Source: Escherichia coli (GTDB lineage Bacteria; Pseudomonadota; Gammaproteobacteria; Enterobacterales; Enterobacteriaceae). Taken from it: DNA of 64,000 bases. The stretch lies in assembly GCF_024502345.1 (NCBI RefSeq), contig NZ_JALDNN010000001.1; one strand, 5' to 3'. The position numbers and the translations under genes are program-made. This document shows positions 1 through 28,941 of the stretch, piece after piece. The notes under the pieces are model-generated. The model was not told where the DNA came from. It did not search any database and saw only the letters and a list, made by a program, of their open reading frames with translations. Every line of letters begins with the position of its first letter. Positions within the stretch are counted from its first letter, which is position 1.

Positions 1-2277
1 ATGTCCGTTAAAGCCTCCGGGCGTTTTGTCCCTCCGTCAGCATTTGCCGCAGGCACCGGTAAGGCGTTTACCGGTGCTTATGCATGGAACGCGCCACGCG
101 AGGCTGTAGGGCGCGAAAGACCTCTTACACGTGACGAGATGCGTCAGGTGCAAGGTGTTTTATCCACGATTAATCGCCTGCCTTACTTTTTGCGTTCGCT
201 GTTTACTTCACGCTATGACTACATCCGGCGCAATAAAAGCCCGGTGCACGGGTTTTATTTCCTCACATCCACTTTTCAGCGTCGTTTATGGCCGCGCATT
301 GAGCGTGTGAATCAGCGCCATGAAATGAACACCGACGCGTCGTTGCTGTTTCTGGCAGAGCGTGACCACTATGCGCGCCTGCCGGGAATGAATGACAAGG
401 AGCTGAAAAAGTTTGCCGCCCGTATCTCATCGCAGCTTTTCATGATGTATGAGGAACTCAGCGATGCCTGGGTGGATGCGCATGGCGAAAAAGAATCACT
501 GTTTACGGATGAGGCGCAGGCTCACCTGTATGGTCATGTTGCTGGCGCTGCACGTGCTTTCAATATTTCCCCTCTCTACTGGAAAAAATACCGTAAAGGG
601 CAGATGACCACGAGGCAGGCATATTCTGCCATTGCCCGTCTGTTTAACGATGAGTGGTGGACTCATCAGCTTAAAGGCCAGCGTATGCGCTGGCATGAAG
701 CGTTACTGATAGCTGTCGGGGAGGTCAATAAAGACCGTTCTCCTTATGCCAGTAAACACGCCATTCGTGATGTGCGTGCGCGCCGCCAGGCAAATCTGGA
801 ATTTCTTAAATCGTGTGACCTTGAAAACAGGGAAACCGGCGAGCGCATCGACCTTATCAGTAAGGTGATGGGCAGTATTTCTAATCCTGAAATTCGCCGG
901 ATGGAGCTGATGAACACCATTGCCGGTATTGAGCGTTACGCCGCTGCAGAGGGTGATGTGGGGATGTTTATCACGCTGACCGCGCCGTCAAAGTATCACC
1001 CGACTCGTCAGGTCAGAAAAGGCGAAAGTAAAACCGTTCAGCTTAATCACGGCTGGAACGATGAGGCATTTAATCCAAAGGATGCGCAGCGTTATCTCTG
1101 CCGCATCTGGAGCCTGATGCGCACGGCATTCAAGGATAATGATTTACAGGTCTACGGTTTGCGTGTCGTCGAGCCACACCACGACGGAACGCCGCACTGG
1201 CATATGATGCTTTTTTGTAATCCACGCCAGCGTAACCAGATTATCGAAATCATGCGTCGCTATGCGCTCAAAGAGGATGGTGACGAAAGAGGAGCCGCGC
1301 GAAACCGTTTTCAGGCAAAGCACCTTAACCGGGGCGGTGCTGCGGGATATATCGCGAAATACATTTCAAAAAATATCGACGGCTATGCACTGGATGGTCA
1401 GCTCGATAACGATACCGGTAAGCCGCTTAAAGATACTGCCGCGGCTGTTACCGCATGGGCGTCAACGTGGCGCATCCCGCAATTTAAAACGGTTGGACTG
1501 CCGACAATGGGGGCTTACCGTGAACTACGCAAATTGCCTCGCGGCGTCAGCATTGCTGATGAGTTTGACGAGCGCGTCGAGGCTGCACGCGCCGCCGCAG
1601 ACAGTGGTGATTTTGCGTTGTATATCAGCGCGCAGGGTGGGGCAAATGTCCCGCGCGATTGTCAGACTGTCAGGGTCGCCCGTAGCCCGTCGGATGACGT
1701 TAACGAGTACGAGGAAGAAGTCGAGAGAGTGGTCGGCATTTACGCGCCGCATCTCGGCGCGCGTCATATTCATATCACCAGAACCACGGACTGGCGCATT
1801 GTGCCGAAAGTGCCGGTCGTTGAGCCTTTGACTTTAAAAAGCGGCATCGCCGCGCCTCGGAGTCCTGTCAATAACTGTAGAAAGCTCTCCGGTGGTGATA
1901 CTTCGTTACCGGCTCCCACACCTTCTGAGCACGCCGCAGCAGTGCTTAATCTGGTTGATGACGGTGTTATCGAATGGAATGACCCGGAGGTCGTGAGGGC
2001 GCTCAGGGGGGCATTAAAACACGACCGGAGAACGCCAAACCGTCAGCAAAGAAACGGAAGCCCGTTAAAACAGCATGAAATGGCACCATCGGCCAGACTG
2101 ACCCGGTCGGAACGAATGCAAATTACCCGTATCCGCGTTGACCTTGCTCAGAACGGTATCAGGCCGCAGCGATGGGAGCTCGACGCGCTGGCGCGTGGCG
2201 CGACCGTAAATTATTACGGGAAATCTTTCAATTATCAGGTCGCTGATGAGTGGCCTGGATTTTTGTTACCCATTTGA
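1..2277 (+). CDS. A: P2 gpA rolling-circle replication initiator endonuclease (758 aa)
   Basis: Begins MSVKASGRFVPP like P2 gpA; HUH-type motif TPHWHMMLF and catalytic tyrosine motif GYIAKYISKN seen in translation. Confidence 0.9.
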   Translation: MSVKASGRFVPPSAFAAGTGKAFTGAYAWNAPREAVGRERPLTRDEMRQVQGVLSTINRLPYFLRSLFTSRYDYIRRNKSPVHGFYFLTSTFQRRLWPRIERVNQRHEMNTDASLLFLAERDHYARLPGMNDKELKKFAARISSQLFMMYEELSDAWVDAHGEKESLFTDEAQAHLYGHVAGAARAFNISPLYWKKYRKGQMTTRQAYSAIARLFNDEWWTHQLKGQRMRWHEALLIAVGEVNKDRSPYASKHAIRDVRARRQANLEFLKSCDLENRETGERIDLISKVMGSISNPEIRRMELMNTIAGIERYAAAEGDVGMFITLTAPSKYHPTRQVRKGESKTVQLNHGWNDEAFNPKDAQRYLCRIWSLMRTAFKDNDLQVYGLRVVEPHHDGTPHWHMMLFCNPRQRNQIIEIMRRYALKEDGDERGAARNRFQAKHLNRGGAAGYIAKYISKNIDGYALDGQLDNDTGKPLKDTAAAVTAWASTWRIPQFKTVGLPTMGAYRELRKLPRGVSIADEFDERVEAARAAADSGDFALYISAQGGANVPRDCQTVRVARSPSDDVNEYEEEVERVVGIYAPHLGARHIHITRTTDWRIVPKVPVVEPLTLKSGIAAPRSPVNNCRKLSGGDTSLPAPTPSEHAAAVLNLVDDGVIEWNDPEVVRALRGALKHDRRTPNRQQRNGSPLKQHEMAPSARLTRSERMQITRIRVDLAQNGIRPQRWELDALARGATVNYYGKSFNYQVADEWPGFLLPI

Positions 2278-2537
2278 GTAAAAATGCAGCGTGATTTTAT
2301 ATGCCTTTGAATGGATTATGCGAAGCGCCTCTAAGGCAGATGAGGAGCAATAGCATGCTGAAGTAGAAGGCTAAATTGTATTGAATCGCTAGCATGTAAT
2401 TTAAGGCAGCTATTTGATTCGAGTCATAAAAGAGCATCTATTTCGGCTAATAAAACCATTGCGAGTGACCTTTTGTCGAAGCATAATTCATCTCGAGCGA
2501 AGTCTTGCTAGTCTTTCATCGGAATGATGACAGGCGC

Positions 2538-2568
2538 AAAAAAACCACCCTGGCAGGTGGTTTTTTTG
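2538..2568. terminator. Bidirectional rho-independent terminator
   Basis: A-run, inverted repeat aaccacc/ggtggtt with loop ctggcag, then T-run (aaaaaaaccaccctggcaggtggttttttt). Confidence 0.6.
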
Positions 2569-2579
2569 TTTGAAGCATA

Positions 2580-2693
2580 CTAAAGAATAATACTTACATG
2601 GATATTACTGACGTTTACTGACAAACCACTTGGACTACCATATGGATAGCCAAAGAGGGCCAGAACGAGAATGCAGTAATAGCACTTCTTCAT
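2580..2693 (-). CDS. Hypothetical small hydrophobic peptide, 37 aa (MKKCYYCILVLALFGYPYGSPSGLSVNVSNIHVSIIL)
   Basis: ATG preceded by SD-like GGAGGAGAT; ORF ends just before the bidirectional terminator at 2538-2568; start overlaps stop of upstream minus-strand ORF 2690-2935 (ATGA); below the 60-aa cutoff of the ORF track. Confidence 0.25.
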   Translation of the reverse strand: MKKCYYCILVLALFGYPYGSPSGLSVNVSNIHVSIIL

Positions 2694-3263
2694 ATCTCCT
2701 CCTGTAAGCAGAGGGCAATTTCCGCCGATATATGCGCTTCTAAGGCGGAGTTACTATTTAGCGAAGTCTTGCCCTGAAATAATGCTCTGTTTAAACGCAA
2801 AGTGATCTGGCATATCACCGAACAGAGAGCCTGAACAACACAACATATAGTATGTCGTTGTTTCTGGTTGCATTTTATGTTGTGTAATACTGGTTTTGCA
2901 TCAAGGATGTTTGAGCTTTTTTTGATATAGCTCAAAGTAAAAAGCAGGGACTACGGATGATAAGGTATTGAAAGCAATGTAAATTTTTTAAAGTTATTGG
3001 TGGCTAAAAAATGCACGGTTTCAATATGGCGGACTTAAATAAGCAATTAAAAAAGTCATAAATATCACTAAAATCATGGTGTTACGTTTTTTGTGGGAGC
3101 TGCGGTGACGCTTAAGTTGATTTGTCATTAAATAAGCCGTGCATGCAACAAGTGAATGTTTTTGCATGCGTCGGGGATGCCCGTTCCAGCTGCTTGCGGT
3201 CAGAGCTGGTGCGGATCCATAGTATCTATGCAACTGCATTAAAACCGACTCATGAAGCGGGCG

Positions 3264-3282
3264 GGCGAGGCGGGGAAAGCAC
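3264..3282. other. cos: P2 cos cohesive-end sequence (19 nt GGCGAGGCGGGGAAAGCAC)
   Basis: Exact string present between gene A and Q, where cos lies in P2; the 19-nt sequence is recalled from P2/186 literature. Confidence 0.6.
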
Positions 3283-3421
3283 TGCGCGCTGGCGGTGGTG
3301 CTGATTTTATTTTTTCAGCGTCTGAGCGCGTCGTGAAGGCGTTTACTTGGCCTGCTGGGCGTTGGTGTGTCTGCGGGGTGTTTTGTGCGGTGGTGAGCGT
3401 GTGAGGGCGTGATGGCGGGGT

Positions 3422-3449
3422 GTAAAAAAGCCGCCCGCAGGCGGCGATG
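3422..3449 (-). terminator. Rho-independent terminator downstream of Q (minus strand)
   Basis: Minus strand reads gccgcctgcgggcggc hairpin followed by a T-run immediately after the Q stop. Confidence 0.55.
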
Positions 3450-3450
3450 T

Positions 3451-4485
3451 TCAGCCGTTGTCAGTGTCCAGTGAGTAGTTTTTAAAGCGGATGACCTCCT
3501 GACCGAGCCAGCCGTTTATCTCGCGGATCCTGTCCTGTAACGGGATAAGCTCATTGCGGACAAAGACCTTTGCCACTTTCTCTATATCACCCAGCGACCC
3601 GACGTTCTCCGGCTTGCCACCCATCAACTGAAAGGGGATGCGGTGCGCGTCCAGCAGGTCTGCGGCGCTGGCTTTTTTGATATTAAAAAAATCATCCTTC
3701 GTTGCCACTTCACTGAGCGGGATAATTTTAATGCCGTCGGCTTTCCCTTGTGGGGCATAGAGAAACAGGTTTTTAAAGTTGTTGCGGCCTTTCGACTTCA
3801 CCATGTTTTCGCGGAGCATTTCGATATCGTTGCGATCCTGCACGGCATCGGTGACGTACATGATGTATCCGGCATGTGCGCCGTTTTCGTAATACTTGCG
3901 GCGGAACAGCGTGGCCGACTCATTCAGCCAGGCAGAGTTAAGGGCGCTGAGATATTCCGGCAGGCCGTACAGCTCCTGATTAATATCCGGCTCCAGCAGG
4001 TGAAACACGGAGCCGGGCGCGAAAGGTGTCGGCTCATGGAAGGACGGCACCCACCAGTAAACATCCTCTTCCACGCCACGGCGGGTATATTTTGCCGGTG
4101 AGGTTTCCAGTCTGATGACCTTACCGGTGGTGCTGTAACGCTTTTCCAGAAACGCATTACCGAACACCAGAAAATCCAGCACAAAGCGGCTGAAATCCTG
4201 CTGGGAAAGCCACGGATGCGGGATAAATGTCGAGGCCAGAATATTGCGTTTGACGTAAATCGGCGAGCTGTGATGCACGGCAGCACGCAGGCTTTTCGCC
4301 AGACCGGTAAAGCTGACCGGCGGCTCATACCATCTGCCGTTACTGATGCACTCGACGTAATCCAGAATGTCACGGCGGTCGAGTACCGGCACCGGCTCAC
4401 CAAAGGTGAATGCCTCCATTTTCGGGGCGCTGGCGGTCATTTTTTTTGCCGCAGGTTGCGGTGTTTTCCCTTTTTTCTTACTCAT
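3451..4485 (-). CDS. Q: P2 gpQ portal protein (344 aa)
   Basis: 344 aa, same length as P2 Q; position next to cos and terminase P; stop overlaps P region. Confidence 0.9.
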   Translation of the reverse strand: MSKKKGKTPQPAAKKMTASAPKMEAFTFGEPVPVLDRRDILDYVECISNGRWYEPPVSFTGLAKSLRAAVHHSSPIYVKRNILASTFIPHPWLSQQDFSRFVLDFLVFGNAFLEKRYSTTGKVIRLETSPAKYTRRGVEEDVYWWVPSFHEPTPFAPGSVFHLLEPDINQELYGLPEYLSALNSAWLNESATLFRRKYYENGAHAGYIMYVTDAVQDRNDIEMLRENMVKSKGRNNFKNLFLYAPQGKADGIKIIPLSEVATKDDFFNIKKASAADLLDAHRIPFQLMGGKPENVGSLGDIEKVAKVFVRNELIPLQDRIREINGWLGQEVIRFKNYSLDTDNG

Positions 4486-6257: not shown

Positions 6258-6430
6258 GAATACCTCGCCGTGATGAATACACGGCAAGGCTACTGAGTCG
6301 CGCCCCGCGATTCGCTAAGGTGCTGTTGTGTCAGTGATAAGCCATCCGGGACTGATGGCGGAGGATGTGCATCGTCGGGAAACTGATGCCGACATGTGAC
6401 TCCTCTAATCACTATTCAGGACTCCTGACA

Positions 6431-19877: not shown

Positions 19878-21692
19878 TCACTTCTTACATAGAATGCTGG
19901 GTTTTACTCCGTACTCAACACATGCACTCAAAAATGTATTTATAAGCCAGATTAGCTGAACAGTATAAGGTTTGGCTGACTGATTTCTCTTGATGATTTC
20001 CACCTCATCGATTAACATTTTTTTTCTTAAAAATGGAGCAGCTAATATTAACTCCCTACTAGTTTTCGGACTCTCATTAATTTTGTCAAGAGCTAACTCA
20101 ATGTCATTCCTGGAAGTGTCAATTGGTCTAATTCTACTAATCTGCGTTTGTAAATATTTTGAAGACCATTCATTATCATATTTATCAAGGTAAAGTTCTT
20201 TTGGTGAATGTAATCTGCCAATATTTTTTAAAGCTTGACTTATAACTTCATGAAATTTACTGGCGCCATAGCTCTCTTTTTTAATATATTTAGAATGAAT
20301 AAACTTTATGGATGGATTTCCTGTCGTGATATCCAGCACAATATGATCGGCCCACTCATCATTCATATCATCACAAATTACAATAGCATCTTTATTTGAA
20401 TAGATATTCTCCACTCGTCTAAATAGCGATCTCACTGGAAATCTTTTAATATTTTCTGGATAAGATTGTTTGTCATCTTTCTCTTTTTCCGATCTGATTG
20501 TTGAAAAATCAAAGCTATCATCAAAAACGGACAGGAAAATATTCAAATTATTTAACATCGTTTTATCTTCAAAACACGAACGACCATGATAGCAATATTG
20601 GGGGGAATCGAAGGTTATAGTGAATGGCTTAAACTTGTTAATATATTTACTAAGCGACATTAACTGAGAACCATTTTCACTAATCATTATACCATCGAGA
20701 TATTTGGATACTATAGTCACAACCTTAGTATTGAATCTCAGACGACATTTGAATTTGAATCTTAAATTGGTTAGCGTTTCACCATCTAAGAAATATGATG
20801 ATTTAAATCCATTGAAAAATTTGTCAAGTTCAACAGAACTTAACGTCACCGTTCCATGAGGCACATTTTTTGTTAGTGTAAAAGTATGGGACGTGCCACG
20901 CACCATATCATCCAACTCGCTAAGATCTATAAAAATAGCTTTTGGCTTGACTTTTTTTGCTAATAATTCACTCAAAGTAATAGGGGAAGAGAAACCTGCC
21001 ATTAGCTTACTTGACAAAGAGGCTGTGTTAGATAATTCATTTACTGTAGCTATTGCCCATGAGCAGAAATTAAAAAAATCCACTTTTTTATCTTTGTAGC
21101 CTATTCGTGAAGTATTTGGTGTTAAAGTAAATATGTCATTTCCTGTCTTGACTCTAAATGTCCCTGGAATTGAACGTCCAGTCGTGTTAGGAGAAAGAAT
21201 GCCACTTAGATTTTTTGCTTCCACTGTTCTATTTCTTATCACTGAATCTGACAGTGACATATTCCTCATGCTAATTTTTTCATACTCAGGATTCAGCCTT
21301 CCATTAAAATTTGAAAATTTATCAAACTCAAAGTATTCTATGAACCTTTCCAACTCGCTTTCAATTGCATCAACATTTTTCTTCGAAATTATTAAAAAAT
21401 CCTGAACCTCCAAGATCATTAGATACGCATACTTGCTTTCTGAAATGCTAGTGCCTTGTAGAAATGAAGGCTCTTCTAGAACTTTAAAAGACACCAAAGA
21501 GTAAGTTAAATTCCCATTATCTACAACAACTTCAGATTTAATTTTATTTATAAGAAAGACACCATCTTTTATCGAGGATATGCTTCTAAATAGATTTTTT
21601 ATTTTATTTCTAGATAAAGGTTTTTTTATCTTAAAAAATTGTGCATTTTTTGATAAAATTAAATCATTGATACTGAAAATATATTTAGTCAC
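19878..21692 (-). CDS. Orphan AT-rich protein of unknown function (604 aa), prophage hotspot cargo
   Basis: Long uninterrupted ORF in very AT-rich DNA; GTG start 8 nt after AAGGA; no Walker A, no YxDD box, no HNH seen by eye; C-terminal segment AIVICDDMNDEWADHIVLD...IKFIHSKY could be a nuclease-like acidic/basic cluster. Confidence 0.6.
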   Translation of the reverse strand: MTKYIFSINDLILSKNAQFFKIKKPLSRNKIKNLFRSISSIKDGVFLINKIKSEVVVDNGNLTYSLVSFKVLEEPSFLQGTSISESKYAYLMILEVQDFLIISKKNVDAIESELERFIEYFEFDKFSNFNGRLNPEYEKISMRNMSLSDSVIRNRTVEAKNLSGILSPNTTGRSIPGTFRVKTGNDIFTLTPNTSRIGYKDKKVDFFNFCSWAIATVNELSNTASLSSKLMAGFSSPITLSELLAKKVKPKAIFIDLSELDDMVRGTSHTFTLTKNVPHGTVTLSSVELDKFFNGFKSSYFLDGETLTNLRFKFKCRLRFNTKVVTIVSKYLDGIMISENGSQLMSLSKYINKFKPFTITFDSPQYCYHGRSCFEDKTMLNNLNIFLSVFDDSFDFSTIRSEKEKDDKQSYPENIKRFPVRSLFRRVENIYSNKDAIVICDDMNDEWADHIVLDITTGNPSIKFIHSKYIKKESYGASKFHEVISQALKNIGRLHSPKELYLDKYDNEWSSKYLQTQISRIRPIDTSRNDIELALDKINESPKTSRELILAAPFLRKKMLIDEVEIIKRNQSAKPYTVQLIWLINTFLSACVEYGVKPSILCKK

Positions 21693-22338: not shown

Positions 22339-23529
22339 ATGAGTGACTATCATCACGGCGTGCAGGTGCTGGAGATTAACGACGGCACCCGCGTCATTTC
22401 CACCGTATCCACTGCCATTGTCGGCATGGTCTGTACGGCCAGCGATGCAGATGCGGAAACCTTCCCCCTCAATAAACCGGTGTTGATTACCAATGTGCAG
22501 AGCGCAATTGCAAAGGCCGGTAAAAAAGGCACGCTGGCGGCATCGTTGCAGGCCATCGCTGACCAGTCAAAACCGGTCACCGTTGTCGTGCGCGTGGAAG
22601 ACGGCACCGGTGATGACGAGGAAACGAAACTCGCGCAGACCGTTTCCAATATCATCGGCACCACCGACGAAAACGGTCAGTACACCGGACTGAAAGCCCT
22701 GCTGGCGGCGGAGTCGGTAACCGGTGTTAAACCGCGTATTCTCGGCGTGCCGGGACTGGACACCAAAGAGGTGGCTGTTGCACTGGCATCAGTCTGTCAG
22801 AAGCTGCGCGCTTTCGGGTATATCAGCGCATGGGGCTGTAAAACTATTTCCGAGGTGAAAGCCTACCGCCAGAATTTCAGCCAGCGTGAGTTGATGGTCA
22901 TCTGGCCGGATTACCTCGCATGGGATACGGTCACCAGTACCACCGCCACCGCGTATGCCACCGCCCGTGCGCTGGGTCTGCGCGCTAAAATCGACCAGGA
23001 GCAGGGCTGGCATAAAACACTGTCCAACGTTGGGGTGAACGGTGTTACCGGCATCAGCGCATCTGTATTCTGGGATTTGCAGGAGTCCGGCACCGATGCT
23101 GACCTGCTGAATGAGTCAGGCGTCACAACGCTGATTCGCCGTGACGGTTTCCGCTTCTGGGGTAACCGTACCTGCTCTGATGACCCGCTGTTCCTCTTTG
23201 AAAACTACACCCGCACCGCGCAGGTACTGGCCGACACGATGGCTGAGGCGCACATGTGGGCGGTGGACAAGCCCATCACCGCAACGCTGATTCGCGACAT
23301 CGTTGACGGCATCAATGCCAAATTCCGTGAGCTGAAAACAAACGGTTATATCGTGGATGCGACCTGCTGGTTCAGCGAAGAATCCAACGATGCGGAAACC
23401 CTCAAGGCCGGAAAACTGTATATCGACTATGACTATACACCGGTGCCTCCTCTCGAAAACCTGACCCTGCGCCAGCGTATTACCGATAAATACCTGGCGA
23501 ATCTGGTCACCCCGGTTAACAGCAATTAA
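22339..23529 (+). CDS. FI: P2 gpFI tail sheath protein (396 aa)
   Basis: 396 aa, size and position. Confidence 0.9.
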   Translation: MSDYHHGVQVLEINDGTRVISTVSTAIVGMVCTASDADAETFPLNKPVLITNVQSAIAKAGKKGTLAASLQAIADQSKPVTVVVRVEDGTGDDEETKLAQTVSNIIGTTDENGQYTGLKALLAAESVTGVKPRILGVPGLDTKEVAVALASVCQKLRAFGYISAWGCKTISEVKAYRQNFSQRELMVIWPDYLAWDTVTSTTATAYATARALGLRAKIDQEQGWHKTLSNVGVNGVTGISASVFWDLQESGTDADLLNESGVTTLIRRDGFRFWGNRTCSDDPLFLFENYTRTAQVLADTMAEAHMWAVDKPITATLIRDIVDGINAKFRELKTNGYIVDATCWFSEESNDAETLKAGKLYIDYDYTPVPPLENLTLRQRITDKYLANLVTPVNSN

Positions 23530-23541
23530 GGAGCCTGACCG

Positions 23542-24060
23542 ATGGCAATGCCGCGCAAACTCAAGTTAATGAACGTCTTTCTGAACGGCTACAGCTATCA
23601 GGGCGTTGCAAAGTCCGTCACGCTGCCAAAACTGACCCGTAAACTCGAAAACTATCGCGGTGCGGGGATGAACGGCAGCGCACCGATAGACCTCGGCCTT
23701 GATGACGATGCGCTGTCAATGGAGTGGTCGCTCGGTGGTTTCCCGGATTCGGTTATCTGGGAGCTTTACGCCGCAACCGGTGTGGATGCCGTACCGATTC
23801 GTTTTGCAGGCTCTTACCAGCGCGACGATACCGGCGAAACGGTGGCCGTCGAGGTGGTCATGCGTGGACGTCAGAAAGAAATCGACACCGGCGAGGGTAA
23901 ACAGGGAGAAGACACCGAGTCGAAAATCTCCGTGGTCTGCACCTATTTCCGGCTGACGATGGACGGTAAGGAGCTGGTCGAAATCGACACCATCAACATG
24001 ATTGAGAAGGTGAACGGCGTCGACCGGCTGGAGCAACACCGCCGCAATATCGGCCTGTGA
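23542..24060 (+). CDS. FII: P2 gpFII tail tube protein (172 aa)
   Basis: 172 aa, follows sheath. Confidence 0.9.
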   Translation: MAMPRKLKLMNVFLNGYSYQGVAKSVTLPKLTRKLENYRGAGMNGSAPIDLGLDDDALSMEWSLGGFPDSVIWELYAATGVDAVPIRFAGSYQRDDTGETVAVEVVMRGRQKEIDTGEGKQGEDTESKISVVCTYFRLTMDGKELVEIDTINMIEKVNGVDRLEQHRRNIGL

Positions 24061-24116
24061 TTTTCATCCGGTCAGCCAGGCTGACCGGTTAACCCTGATT
24101 AAGAAGTGAGAAAACC

Positions 24117-24392
24117 ATGAACAAAGAAAATGTGATTACCCTGGACAATCCGGTCAAACGTGGTGAGCAGGTCATCGAACAGGTCACGCTGATGAAACCC
24201 AGTGCGGGGACGCTGCGCGGTGTCAGTCTGGCTGCGGTCGCAAACTCCGAAGTCGATGCACTGATTAAAGTGCTGCCGCGCATGACGGCACCGATGCTGA
24301 CCGAGCAGGAGGTCGCCGCACTGGAACTGCCTGACCTTGTGGCGCTGGCCGGTAAGGTGGTCGGTTTTTTGTCGCCGAACTCGGTGCAGTGA
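24117..24392 (+). CDS. E: P2 gpE tail assembly chaperone (91 aa)
   Basis: 91 aa between tube and tape measure. Confidence 0.85.
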   Translation: MNKENVITLDNPVKRGEQVIEQVTLMKPSAGTLRGVSLAAVANSEVDALIKVLPRMTAPMLTEQEVAALELPDLVALAGKVVGFLSPNSVQ

Positions 24393-24544
24393 CGTTCCCG
24401 AAAAATCTCTCGGTCGATGACCTGATGGCGGATGTGGCAGTGATATTTCACTGGCCGCCATCAGAACTGTATCCCATGAGCCTGACCGAACTCATCACAT
24501 GGCGCGAAAAGGCGCTCCGGCGAAGCGGAAACACGAATGAGTAA
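24117..24544 (+). CDS. E': P2 gpE+E' produced by programmed -1 ribosomal frameshift (about 142 aa)
   Basis: Slippery GGTTTTTTG run at 24363-24371 near the end of E; the -1 frame stays open to TAA at 24542-24544, overlapping the T start. Confidence 0.65.
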
Positions 24545-26984
24545 CAATGTAAAATTACAGGTATTGCTCAGGGCTGTTGACCAGGCATCCCGCCCGTTTA
24601 AATCCATCCGCACAGCGAGTAAGTCGCTGTCGGGGGATATCCGGGAAACACAAAAATCACTACGCGAGCTGAACGGTCACGCATCCCGTATTGAGGGATT
24701 CCGCAAGACCAGCGCACAGCTCGCCGTGACTGGTCATGCACTTGAAAAGGCACGGCAGGAGGCCGAAGCCCTTGCCACACAGTTTAAAAACACCGAACGT
24801 CCGACCCGTGCTCAGGCGAAAGTGCTGGAATCCGCAAAGCGAGCGGCGGAGGACTTACAGGCGAAATATAACCGCCTGACGGATTCCGTTAAACGCCAGC
24901 AGCGGGAACTGGCCGCTGTGGGAATTAATACCCGCAATCTTGCACATGATGAGCAGGGACTGAAAAACCGTATCAGTGAAACCACCGCACAGCTTAACCG
25001 GCAGCGTGACGCGCTGGCGCGTGTCAGTGCGCAACAGGCAAAACTTAACGCAGTAAAACAGCGTTATCAGGCAGGCAAGGAACTGGCCGGAAATATGGCC
25101 TCAGTGGGCGCTGCCGGTGTGGGGATTGCGGCGGCGGGAACGATGGCCGGAGTTAAGTTGCTGATGCCCGGTTATGAGTTTGCGCAGAAAAACTCAGAAT
25201 TGCAGGCCGTGCTCGGAGTGGCAAAAGACTCCGCCGAAATGACCGCACTACGCAAACAGGCGCGCCAGCTCGGCGACAATACCGCCGCCTCGGCGGATGA
25301 TGCGGCCGGTGCACAGATAATCATCGCGAAAGCGGGTGGGGATGTTGATGCCATTCAGGCGGCAACGCCGGTCACGCTGAATATGGCGCTGGCGAACCGT
25401 CGCACGATGGAAGAAAACGCCGCCCTGCTGATGGGGATGAAATCCGCCTTTCAGCTTTCAAACGATAAGGTCGCTCATATTGGGGATGTTCTCTCCATGA
25501 CGATGAACAAAACCGCCGCCGATTTTGACGGTATGAGCGATGCGCTGACCTATGCCGCACCTGTGGCAAAAAATGCCGGTGTCAGCATTGAAGAAACCGC
25601 CGCAATGGTCGGGGTGCTGCATGATGCAAAAATCACAGGCTCAATGGCGGGGACGGGAAGCCGTGCCGTGTTAAGCCGCCTGCAGGCACCGACGGGAAAA
25701 GCATGGGATGCACTCAAAGAGCTTGGAGTGAAAACCTCAGACAGCAAGGGAAACACCCGGTCAATATTTACCATTCTGAAAGAAATGCAGGCCAGTTTTG
25801 AGAAAAACCGGCTCGGTACTGCCCAGCAGGCTGAATACATGAAAACCATTTTCGGGGAGGAGGCCAGCTCAGCCGCCGCCGTGCTGATGACTGCCGCCTC
25901 AACCGGAAAGCTGGACAAACTGACCGCTGCGTTTAAAGCCTCAGACGGGAAGACCGCGGAGCTGGTAAATATCATGCAAGACAACCTCGGCGGTGACTTT
26001 AAGGAGTTTCAGTCCGCTTATGAGGCGGTAGGGACTGACCTGTTTGACCAGCAGGAAGGTGCGCTGCGTAAGCTCACGCAGACGGCCACAAAGTATGTGT
26101 TAAAACTCGACGGCTGGATACAGAAAAACAAATCACTGGCGTCAACCATCGGCCTCATTGCCGGTGGCGCACTGGTGCTGACTGGCATCATCGGTGCCAT
26201 TGGTCTTGTAGCCTGGCCGGTTATCACCGGCATCAATGCCATCATCGCGGCAGCAGGCGCAATGGGGGCAGTCTTCACGACGGTTGGCAGTGCTGTTATG
26301 ACCGCCATCGGGGCGATTAGCTGGCCGGTTGTGGCCGTGGTGGCCGCAATTGTCGCCGGGGCGTTGCTTATCCGTAAATACTGGGAGCCTGTCAGCGCAT
26401 TCTTTGGCGGTGTGGTTGAAGGGCTGAAAGTGGCATTTGCGCCGGTGGGGGAACTGTTCACGCCACTTAAGCCGGTGTTTGACTGGCTGGGTGAAAAGTT
26501 ACAGGCCGCGTGGCAGTGGTTTAAAAACCTGATTGCCCCGGTCAAAGCCACTCAGGACACCCTGAACAGTTGCCGTGACACGGGGGTCATGTTCGGGCAG
26601 GCACTGGCTGACGCGCTGATGCTGCCGCTTAATGCGTTCAACAAACTGCGCAGCGGTATTGACTGGGTACTGGAAAAACTCGGTGTTATCAACAAAGAGT
26701 CAGACACACTTGACCAGACCGCCGCCAGAACTCAAGCCGCCACGTATGGCAGCGGTGGTTATATTCCGGCGACCAGCTCTTATGCAGGCTATCAGGCTTA
26801 TCAGCCAGTCACGGCACCGGCTGGCCGCTCTTATGTGGACCAGAGTAAAAACGAATATCACATCAACCTGACGGGCGGTACTGCGCCGGGAACACAGCTT
26901 GACCGCCAGTTACAGGATGCGCTCGAAAAATACGAGCGGGATAAACGTGCGCGCGCCCGTGCCAGCATGATGCATGACGGTTAA
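24537..26984 (+). CDS. T: P2 gpT tail tape measure protein (815 aa)
   Basis: 815 aa; coiled-coil N-terminal half and Gly/Ala-rich hydrophobic segments. Confidence 0.9.
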   Translation: MSNNVKLQVLLRAVDQASRPFKSIRTASKSLSGDIRETQKSLRELNGHASRIEGFRKTSAQLAVTGHALEKARQEAEALATQFKNTERPTRAQAKVLESAKRAAEDLQAKYNRLTDSVKRQQRELAAVGINTRNLAHDEQGLKNRISETTAQLNRQRDALARVSAQQAKLNAVKQRYQAGKELAGNMASVGAAGVGIAAAGTMAGVKLLMPGYEFAQKNSELQAVLGVAKDSAEMTALRKQARQLGDNTAASADDAAGAQIIIAKAGGDVDAIQAATPVTLNMALANRRTMEENAALLMGMKSAFQLSNDKVAHIGDVLSMTMNKTAADFDGMSDALTYAAPVAKNAGVSIEETAAMVGVLHDAKITGSMAGTGSRAVLSRLQAPTGKAWDALKELGVKTSDSKGNTRSIFTILKEMQASFEKNRLGTAQQAEYMKTIFGEEASSAAAVLMTAASTGKLDKLTAAFKASDGKTAELVNIMQDNLGGDFKEFQSAYEAVGTDLFDQQEGALRKLTQTATKYVLKLDGWIQKNKSLASTIGLIAGGALVLTGIIGAIGLVAWPVITGINAIIAAAGAMGAVFTTVGSAVMTAIGAISWPVVAVVAAIVAGALLIRKYWEPVSAFFGGVVEGLKVAFAPVGELFTPLKPVFDWLGEKLQAAWQWFKNLIAPVKATQDTLNSCRDTGVMFGQALADALMLPLNAFNKLRSGIDWVLEKLGVINKESDTLDQTAARTQAATYGSGGYIPATSSYAGYQAYQPVTAPAGRSYVDQSKNEYHINLTGGTAPGTQLDRQLQDALEKYERDKRARARASMMHDG

Positions 26985-26998
26985 GGAGGTGACGAAAA

Positions 26999-27478
26999 AT
27001 GATGCTCGCGTTAGGTATGTTTGTTTTTATGCGCCAGACGCTGCCACACCAGGCCATGCAGCGTGAATCAGATTATCGCTGGCCGTCAAATTCCCGTATC
27101 GGTAAACGGGATGCCTTTCAGTTTCTCGGTGTGGGTGAGGAAAACATTACGCTTGCCGGTGTGCTTTATCCCGAACTGACAGGCGGAAAGCTGACGATGA
27201 CCACGCTCAGGATGATGGCAGAGGAAGGTCGGGCGTGGCCGTTGCTGGATGGCACCGGCATGATTTACGGCATGTATGTCATCAGCAGGGTGAGTGAAAC
27301 AGGGAGTATTTTCTTTGCAGACGGCACACCCCGGAAAATTGATTTTACGCTGTCGCTCACCCGCGTTGATGAATCACTGGCCGCGCTTTATGGCGATATC
27401 GGTAAACAGGCGGAATCGCTCATCGGTAAGGCTGGCAGTATGGCGACCAGATTCACGGGTATGACGGGGGCGGGATAA
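26999..27478 (+). CDS. U: P2 gpU tail protein (159 aa)
   Basis: 159 aa, size and position. Confidence 0.9.
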   Translation: MMLALGMFVFMRQTLPHQAMQRESDYRWPSNSRIGKRDAFQFLGVGEENITLAGVLYPELTGGKLTMTTLRMMAEEGRAWPLLDGTGMIYGMYVISRVSETGSIFFADGTPRKIDFTLSLTRVDESLAALYGDIGKQAESLIGKAGSMATRFTGMTGAG

Positions 27479-28641
27479 TGCTGGATGCGCTGACATTTGA
27501 TGCAGGCAGTACGCTGACGCCGGATTACATGCTGATGCTCGACAGCAGGGATATTACCGGCAATATCAGCGACCGTCTGATGAGCATGACCCTGACGGAT
27601 AACCGGGGCTTTGAGGCTGACCAGCTTGATATTGAACTGAACGATGCCGACGGGCAGGTCGGGCTGCCGGTTCGTGGCGCTGTCCTGACGGTGTATATCG
27701 GCTGGAAAGGTTTTGCCCTGGTATGCAAAGGGAAATTTACCGTTGATGAGGTTGAACACCGGGGCGCACCGGATGTGGTCACCATCCGTGCCCGGAGTGC
27801 AGATTTTCGTGGGACGCTCAATTCCCGCCGGGAAGGCTCCTGGCATGACACCACGCTCGGTGCGATTGTTGAGGCGATAGCCTCCCGTAACAGGCTGGAA
27901 GCCAGTGTCGCTCCGTCACTGGCCGGAATTAAAATCCCGCACATCGACCAGTCGCAGGAGTCTGATGTGAAATTCCTGACCCGTCTTGCTGAACGCAACG
28001 GCGGCGAGGTGTCGGTAAAAATGGGAAAACTGCTGTTTCTCAAAGCAGGGCAGGGGGTGACGGCCAGCGGTAAAAAAATCCCGCAGATTACCATCACCCG
28101 CAGCGACGGCGACCGTCATCATTTTGCGATTGCTGACCGTGGAGCTTACACCGGCGTAACGGCAAAGTGGTTACACACCAAAGACCCGAAGCCGCAAAAG
28201 CAGAAGGTAAAACTGAAACGCAAAAAGAAAGAAAAACACCTGCGCGCACTGGAGCACCCGAAAGCGAAACCGGTCACGCAGAAGAAAGCGCCAAAAGTAC
28301 CGGAAGCGCGCGAAGGTGAATACATGGCCGGTGAAGCTGACAACGTTTTTGCCCTGACTACGGTATATGCCACAAAAGCGCAGGCCATGCGCGCCGCTCA
28401 GGCAAAGTGGGACAAACTGCAACGGGGCGTCGCGGAGTTCTCCATCAGCCTGGCTACCGGTCGGGCAGATATTTACACGGAAACACCGGTTAAAGTGTCA
28501 GGCTTTAAGCGCGTCATAGACGAGCAGGACTGGACAATCACTAAGGTGACACATTTTCTGAATAATAGCGGCTTCACGACGTCCTTAGAGCTTGAGGTCA
28601 GGCTTTCTGATGTGGAGTACGAAACAGAAGATGATGAGTGA
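27478..28641 (+). CDS. D: P2 gpD tail protein (387 aa)
   Basis: 387 aa, size and position. Confidence 0.9.
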   Translation: MLDALTFDAGSTLTPDYMLMLDSRDITGNISDRLMSMTLTDNRGFEADQLDIELNDADGQVGLPVRGAVLTVYIGWKGFALVCKGKFTVDEVEHRGAPDVVTIRARSADFRGTLNSRREGSWHDTTLGAIVEAIASRNRLEASVAPSLAGIKIPHIDQSQESDVKFLTRLAERNGGEVSVKMGKLLFLKAGQGVTASGKKIPQITITRSDGDRHHFAIADRGAYTGVTAKWLHTKDPKPQKQKVKLKRKKKEKHLRALEHPKAKPVTQKKAPKVPEAREGEYMAGEADNVFALTTVYATKAQAMRAAQAKWDKLQRGVAEFSISLATGRADIYTETPVKVSGFKRVIDEQDWTITKVTHFLNNSGFTTSLELEVRLSDVEYETEDDE

Positions 28642-28722
28642 TGTTTATTATTTATCTGTTTGTTTTATAAGGATAAATTAACTAAAATGGCACCATCAAC
28701 AAAACCGGAAGAGGTGCTCGCG

Positions 28723-28941
28723 ATGTTTCATTGTCCTTTATGCCAGCATGCCGCACATGCGCGTACAAGTCGCTATATCACTGACACGACAAAAGAGCGT
28801 TATCACCAGTGCCAGAACGTGAATTGCAGCGCCACGTTCATCACTTATGAGTCGGTACAGCGATACATCGTTAAGCCGGGAGAAGTCCACGCCGTAAGGC
28901 CGCACCCGTTGCCGTCAGGGCAGCAAATTATGTGGATGTAA
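28723..28941 (+). CDS. ogr: P2 Ogr late-gene transcriptional activator, zinc-finger (72 aa)
   Basis: MFHCPLCQHAAHARTSRYITDTTKERYHQCQNVNCSATF has the Cys4 arrangement; last gene before att. Confidence 0.9.
   Translation: MFHCPLCQHAAHARTSRYITDTTKERYHQCQNVNCSATFITYESVQRYIVKPGEVHAVRPHPLPSGQQIMWM

Follow-up and report, generated by a model that had tools for sequence, protein, structure and literature searches.

The window analysed here, a stretch of 64,000 nucleotides from Escherichia coli (NCBI RefSeq assembly GCF_024502345.1, contig NZ_JALDNN010000001.1), starts with the gene of the P2 replication protein gpA (758 amino acids, PF05840) and contains further on a phage tail operon in which Pfam matches give the order FI, FII, E/E′, T, U, D and ogr (Table 1). 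The host gene yegQ comes after ogr, as it also does in E. coli E47. The locus is a P2-type prophage integrated beside yegQ in the E. coli chromosome. According to the list of open reading frames and the Pfam matches, the tail operon genes are intact; a 5.5-kb stretch that extends from upstream of FI into D aligns with phage P2 almost without gaps at 96.7% identity, and the sequence of the E/E′ site occurs in 1581 of the 5426 complete genomes of E. coli.

Three other parts of the prophage were noted. Within the first part of the window (1–3451), the gap of 1.2 kb between A and the portal gene Q contains only short ORFs here; in P2, this gap is the slot for tin and old. Between the tail-fibre assembly gene G and FI, the minus strand carries an ORF of 604 amino acids (19878–21692) with a GC content of about 0.29–0.35, compared with about 0.55 in the tail genes. 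This ORF has no Pfam match and aligns over its full length with the PADLOC candidate defence gene PDC-S71 (E = 8.5e-219). The cargo gene found upstream of FI in P2 is fun(Z), and a DUF5677 gene occupies this slot in E. coli E47, which indicates a variable cargo or defence hotspot. Lastly, the intergenic gap between FII and E includes a perfect 10-bp inverted repeat, CCGGTCAGCC/GGCTGACCGG, with arms 1 nt apart (24068–24088). The record of phage 186 describes the equivalent position as 'tI, partial terminator of pJ transcript', and the repeat may lower the expression of E, T, U and D relative to the sheath and tube genes.

Table 1. Coordinates of the tail genes and of the features at the E/E′ junction (positions in the window).
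Feature	Position	Strand	Description	Basis
FI	22339–23529		tail sheath	Pfam
FII	23542–24060	+	tail tube; upstream neighbour defining the chaperone slot	PF04985 Phage_tube, E = 3.1e-60; P2 gpFII at the same position
E	24117–24392	+	zero-frame gpE, 91 aa; short form of the tail assembly chaperone	ORF and translation; PF10109; match to P2 E CDS
Candidate 5′ element	24353–24361	+	Shine-Dalgarno-like TAAGGTGGT, codons 79–82 of E	anti-Shine-Dalgarno pairing; synonymous constraint
E/E′ joint open window	24356–24392	+	37 nt open in both frames	TAA 24353 upstream; E stop 24390–24392
Slippery heptamer	24365–24371	+	T TTT TTG, −1 shift site	sequence; P2 annotation; conservation
E′ segment	24371–24544	+	57 codons read in the −1 frame, then the stop; C-terminal portion of gpE+E′ (142 aa)	translation; PF06528
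T	24537–26984	+	tape measure, 815 aa	ORF; PF10145 PhageMin_Tail, E = 2.9e-45
U	26999–27478		P2 gpU	Pfam
D	27478–28641		gpD	Pfam
ogr	28660–28941		Ogr/Delta zinc finger	Pfam

The E/E′ pair sits between the tube gene FII and the tape-measure gene T. Gene E stops at a TGA codon (24390–24392), and near this end the sequence reads GGTTTTTTG at 24363–24371. The original prediction had placed a slippery run joining E and E′ between 24360 and 24372, an interval that contains the run observed. In the frame of E, the heptamer is read within GGT TTT TTG, that is, codons 83–85 (Gly83-Phe84-Leu85), 6 codons before the stop of E, and its register is the canonical X XXY YYZ. The −1 frame is closed by a TAA at 24353 and is open from 24356. 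Since both frames are jointly open for only 37 nt, any shift between them must fall within 24356–24392. Downstream of the heptamer, the E′ codons span 24371–24541 and are followed by a TAA stop (24542–24544), which agrees exactly with the anticipated extension of about 57 codons up to a stop that overlaps the start of T. The ATG of T (24537) overlaps the end of E′ by 8 nt, an overlap that was also present in 9 of the 18 loci scored. Translation across the shift predicts a gpE+E′ fusion of 142 amino acids.

The resemblance to phage P2, which had been proposed as the model for this arrangement, proved to be close to identity. Over 541 bp around the site, the DNA identity to P2 is 97.8%, and the only differences are scattered synonymous changes elsewhere in E; across 70 bases (24327–24396), a stretch that takes in the heptamer together with the entire 37-nt overlap, the two sequences do not differ. 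Residues 1–84 and 86–142 of the fusion, the two parts compared, are 100% identical to P2 gpE+E′. The position in the operon, the products of 91 and 142 amino acids and the 8-nt overlap with T are common to both. In addition, the GenBank record of P2 (AF063097) contains, besides E, an E+E′ CDS in two pieces and a 'site of -1 translational frameshift', and its note on the E+E′ CDS reads 'shares amino terminus with gpE; -1 frameshift; essential tail protein'. By offset, the frameshift base annotated in P2 corresponds to position 24372 of the window, one base 3′ of the last G of the heptamer.

Both halves of the fusion belong to recognised families. The zero-frame part matches PF10109, Phage_TAC_7 (47.8 bits, cutoff 25, residues 7–85), described as 'tail assembly chaperone proteins E, or 41 or 14' (P2 E, Mu gp41), and the zero-frame product also falls in phrog_103 'tail' (E = 9.4e-43). 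The −1 part matches PF06528, Phage_P2_GpE (76.3 bits, cutoff 23, E = 1.2e-21), over residues 104–139 of the fusion, and the alignment with PHROG 1756 crosses the junction (fusion residues 82–142). An AlphaFold2 model of the fusion was obtained with a pLDDT of 91, in which a single helix (residues 71–89) spans the junction. A search of NCBIfam gave no match for E or the fusion, and a sequence search of the PDB returned nothing meaningful.

From these results, we consider it almost certain that gene E, a tail chaperone gene of the P2 type within a P2-like prophage, has its programmed −1 frameshift site here. The feature was known before, since it is the P2 site itself; it is real but ordinary. 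According to this mechanism, most ribosomes would read E in frame and halt at 24390–24392, yielding the 91-aa gpE. A minority would slip with tRNA-Phe on UUU (24366–24368) in the P site and tRNA-Leu on UUG (24369–24371) in the A site; both tRNAs would move back one base and re-pair with UUU UUU, as in a tandem slippage. After the slip, the next codon would be GUC at 24371, and translation would continue for 57 codons to the TAA at 24542–24544. The junction of the 142-aa gpE+E′ is predicted to be ...K-V-V-G-F-L|V-A-E-L-G..., and the predicted tryptic peptide across it is VVGFLVAELGAVTFPK, in which the Leu is retained. By analogy with lambda gpG/gpGT, the common E part would bind the tape-measure protein gpT, and the E′ domain of the rarer fusion would recruit the tail tube protein. 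A fixed frequency of shifting would set the ratio of the two chaperones, neither of which would end in the virion if the analogy with lambda holds. The E/E+E′ frameshift of P2 is said to have been demonstrated in 2002 by Christie et al. (J Bacteriol 184:6522), and the P2 fusion reportedly amounts to roughly 10% of gpE. It has been published that P2 makes the fusion at this site, and that its E′ has no ribosome-binding site and reaches 37 nt back into E (PMC3091744, PMC3931495, PMC5009743).

We evaluated how often the elements of the site would be expected by chance. The window holds 24 copies of the bare string TTTTTTG, where 17.65 would be expected, and 4 of 100 shuffles reach 24. This is near the chance level, and the string by itself therefore carries no meaning. 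An in-frame X XXY YYZ appears at a rate of 0.0024 per codon in the long ORFs of the window, which gives P ~0.024 for finding one among the 10 possible codon positions of the overlap; the probability that the −1 frame stays open for at least 57 codons from random in-gene positions is P ~0.07. The non-random features are the register and the position of the heptamer, not the string. Judged from sequence comparisons, the homology and conservation described here override these chance figures.

The abundance of the bare heptamer could nevertheless suggest that the motif and the open −1 frame coincide by accident, or that they are relics of a dead prophage with no present function. The operon does contain other in-frame heptamers; for example, FII carries T TTC CCG at 23739–23745, followed by 51 open −1 codons, which is probably a chance occurrence. 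At the E/E′ junction, by contrast, the −1 frame bears the Pfam domain mentioned above, the operon is intact and nearly gapless against P2, the sequence of the site recurs among complete E. coli genomes, and the arrangement is conserved among related phages with selection on the heptamer at the RNA level, as described in the following paragraphs. We give a reading based on coincidence or decay a practically negligible probability, and the conservation data effectively refute it.

The conservation of the arrangement was assessed with a tblastn search in which the fusion was used as the query. This search retrieved 418 phage records, and in 401 of them at least 80% of the fusion was covered as two pieces, down to ~37% identity. 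We examined 99 loci, 19 from GenBank and 80 from IMG/VR. The former come from phages of Escherichia, Salmonella, Yersinia, Klebsiella, Burkholderia, Ralstonia, Pseudomonas, Aeromonas, Vibrio, Acidovorax and Mannheimia and provide the deep diversity; the latter, recovered with a 6-sequence query, are mostly close relatives (69–100% identity). All 99 loci show homology to E′ in the −1 frame together with an in-frame X XXY YYZ inside the overlap. A −1 frame closed in related phages had been named in advance as the observation that would speak against the prediction; in every one of these loci, this frame is open and carries E′ homology.

The heptamer is TTTTTTG in 93 of the 99 loci, TTTTTTC in two, TTTTTTA in one, and GGGAAAG, AAATTTT and CCCTTTC in one each. 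Since different heptamers occupy one and the same register, what appears to be favoured is the re-pairing of the tRNAs rather than any particular sequence. In some distant relatives, T6G is replaced by GGGAAAG, AAATTTT, CCCTTTC or TTTTTTC in the same register, as observed in Mannheimia phage PHL101 (L013, positions 682–688) and in loci L014 (652–658), L018 (643–649) and L011 (634–640). The linker from E to the conserved E′ block is longer in L013, L014 and L018. The GGGAAAG of the Mannheimia relative is also the heptamer of lambda.

A closer view was provided by the codons of E. Among 90 distinct E genes with a T-type heptamer, the codon that precedes the slip encodes Gly, Ser, Thr or Asp, yet its third base is T in all 90. 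The Phe codon of the heptamer is TTT in 90 of 90, and its Leu codon is TTG or TTA, never CTN, with G at the Z position in 87 of 90. In the 70 distinct E genes that encode a protein of 91 amino acids (median nucleotide identity 81%), codons 83–85 are synonymously invariant while their neighbours vary, and all the other Leu codons of E prefer CTG or CTT. This pattern of synonymous constraint shows that selection acts on the heptamer RNA itself.

These data also bear on the possibility that the shift occurs during transcription. In this alternative, the RNA polymerase would add a U on the T6 run, a homopolymer in which a single additional U places E′ in frame, and the junction would be G-F-F-V instead of G-F-L-V. 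The corresponding peptide, which would also be produced by a shift involving the P site only, is VVGFFVAELGAVTFPK and not VVGFLVAELGAVTFPK. The T-run is preceded by a weak hairpin (24344–24365), a terminator-like layout that could pause the polymerase; however, this hairpin has no significant covariation. The run has six T, compared with about nine A or T for productive slippage in bacteria (PMC5009743), and the heptamers GGGAAAG, AAATTTT and CCCTTTC of the relatives preserve X XXY YYZ even though they are poor sites for polymerase slippage. Moreover, the constraint on the Z position (G in 87 of 90) is relevant to slippage of the A-site tRNA and not to the polymerase. Transcriptional slippage was accordingly rejected as the main route in view of the length of the run and the heteropolymeric heptamers of the relatives, and we regard it overall as a very unlikely explanation of the site.

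Another alternative is that E′ is a separate small gene of 51 amino acids that starts at a GTG at 24389, in which case the T-run would be incidental. The −1 frame does hold this GTG, RefSeq (PGAP) enters it as a 51-aa 'GpE family phage tail protein' in many genomes, that of E. coli E47 among them, and several phage records likewise annotate a separate E′. The interval from 24389 to 24544 of the window, which corresponds to positions 6273–6428 of locus L019, is annotated in this way in 12 of 12 records among the matches listed, out of 1584. However, no match to a Shine-Dalgarno sequence was found at −17 to −4 of GTG 24389, and in the 19 GenBank loci the start-like codons that come before the conserved E′ block likewise have none. 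The GTG equivalent to 24389 is missing in phages 186, PSP3, Burkholderia phiE202, RSA1, phiCTX and others, and in Klebsiella phage ST16-OXA48phi5.4 a start-like codon first appears within the conserved domain, 138 nt beyond the heptamer. A separate gene would also leave unexplained why synonymous sites in the heptamer are fixed and why the −1 relation between the two frames is universal, and the E′ of P2 has been described as lacking a ribosome-binding site and being made as a frameshift extension of E (PMC3091744, PMC3931495). Given the lack of Shine-Dalgarno sequences and of conserved start codons across the 19 loci, we rejected independent initiation of E′ as the main route, and we consider a separate E′ gene extremely improbable. 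The annotation of E′ in RefSeq is thus incorrect, and automated pipelines consistently miss the real 142-aa product.

With the programmed −1 shift as the preferred explanation, we looked for RNA elements around the heptamer that could stimulate it. On the 3′ side, folding of the single sequence from 24372 to 24460 gave a z-score of −1.46 and supported no downstream structure. RNAalifold with 18 diverse sequences yielded −4.73 kcal/mol with no compensatory pairs or covariation, and a hairpin of the form CGCCG-N4-CGGYG located just 3′ of the heptamer showed no two-sided changes and was not above shuffles. A downstream stimulatory structure was rejected on the basis of these three analyses (the fold, RNAalifold and the covariation test of the hairpin). 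Published statements on P2 and its Burkholderia relatives agree that there is no downstream structure (PMC3091744).

On the 5′ side, the Shine-Dalgarno-like sequence TAAGGTGGT pairs with the anti-Shine-Dalgarno more strongly (−14 kcal/mol) than all other in-frame stretches of 18 nt in E. Within the 19-locus set, the strongest pairing lies directly 5′ of the heptamer in 15 of the 15 loci with TTTTTTG and in none of the 4 loci with other heptamers, from which the Shine-Dalgarno-like sequence is missing. Codons 80 (AAG, 0.95) and 81 (GTG, 1.00) are synonymously fixed in the 70 distinct E genes, and they are located outside the translated overlap; codon −4, which mainly encodes K, E, Q, V or A (Ile in one case), has G as its third base in 85 of 90. 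Per-locus synonymous shuffles of this element gave P values of 0.05–0.3 only. Depending on the pairing register, the spacing from TAAGGTGGT to the heptamer is 5–8 nt, outside the published range of 9–14 nt upstream for Shine-Dalgarno sequences that stimulate −1 shifts (PMC5009743). In view of the shuffle values and of this spacing, we did not adopt the element as a proven stimulator. No literature was found that links the TTTTTTG heptamer with a Shine-Dalgarno sequence.

The hairpin at 24344–24365, detected in a terminator scan, is weak and G-U-rich, with 8 pairs and a 6-nt loop, and ends exactly at the T-run. It was 90% paired over 30 contexts, 72 of 500 shuffles equalled it, and one of its pairs is broken in 8 sequences. 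It is conceivable, although we think it rather unlikely, that a 5′ RNA element, either AAGGTG at 24354–24359 or this hairpin, tunes the shift at a spacing shorter than 9–14 nt. The efficiency of P2-type shifts has been reported to be 2- to 3-fold above that of lambda (PMC5009743), and such an element, if real, could explain this difference without a 3′ structure.

As a discovery, the site matters little, since the frameshift that tailed phages conserve in their tail chaperone genes is commonly exemplified by it. The comparative data show cleanly how selection can act on the RNA at a recoding site: ahead of the slip, the encoded residue changes but its codon keeps T as the third base, and varied heptamers keep one register. 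They also raise the small, testable question of a 5′ Shine-Dalgarno-like modulator.

Among the known systems, the site resembles E. coli dnaX (A AAA AAG) in its proposed −1 tandem slippage, in a heptamer composed of a homopolymer plus G, and in the presence of a Shine-Dalgarno-like sequence upstream. The two differ in that dnaX has a 3′ stem-loop, whereas none is supported 5–9 nt downstream of the E/E′ heptamer, and in the spacing of the upstream sequence, which for the dnaX class of 5′ Shine-Dalgarno elements is 9–14 nt but only 5–8 nt here. They also differ in magnitude, since ~50% of ribosomes shift at dnaX (PMC5009743), far above the 2- to 3-fold-over-lambda level of P2. The analogy with lambda G/GT formed part of the original prediction, and it has also been drawn in the literature (PMC3091744, PMC3931495, PMC5009743). 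The products of lambda G/GT chaperone the tape-measure protein, the longer of them brings in the tube protein, and the virion contains neither (PMC5009743). The class is defined by two overlapping ORFs between the genes for the major tail protein and the tape measure (Levin et al. 1993; Xu, Hendrix and Duda 2004, 2013, 2014), and E/E′ shares with it this position, the −1 shift, which takes place at an X XXY YYZ close to where the first ORF ends, and the scheme of a short, abundant product accompanied by a rarer, extended one.
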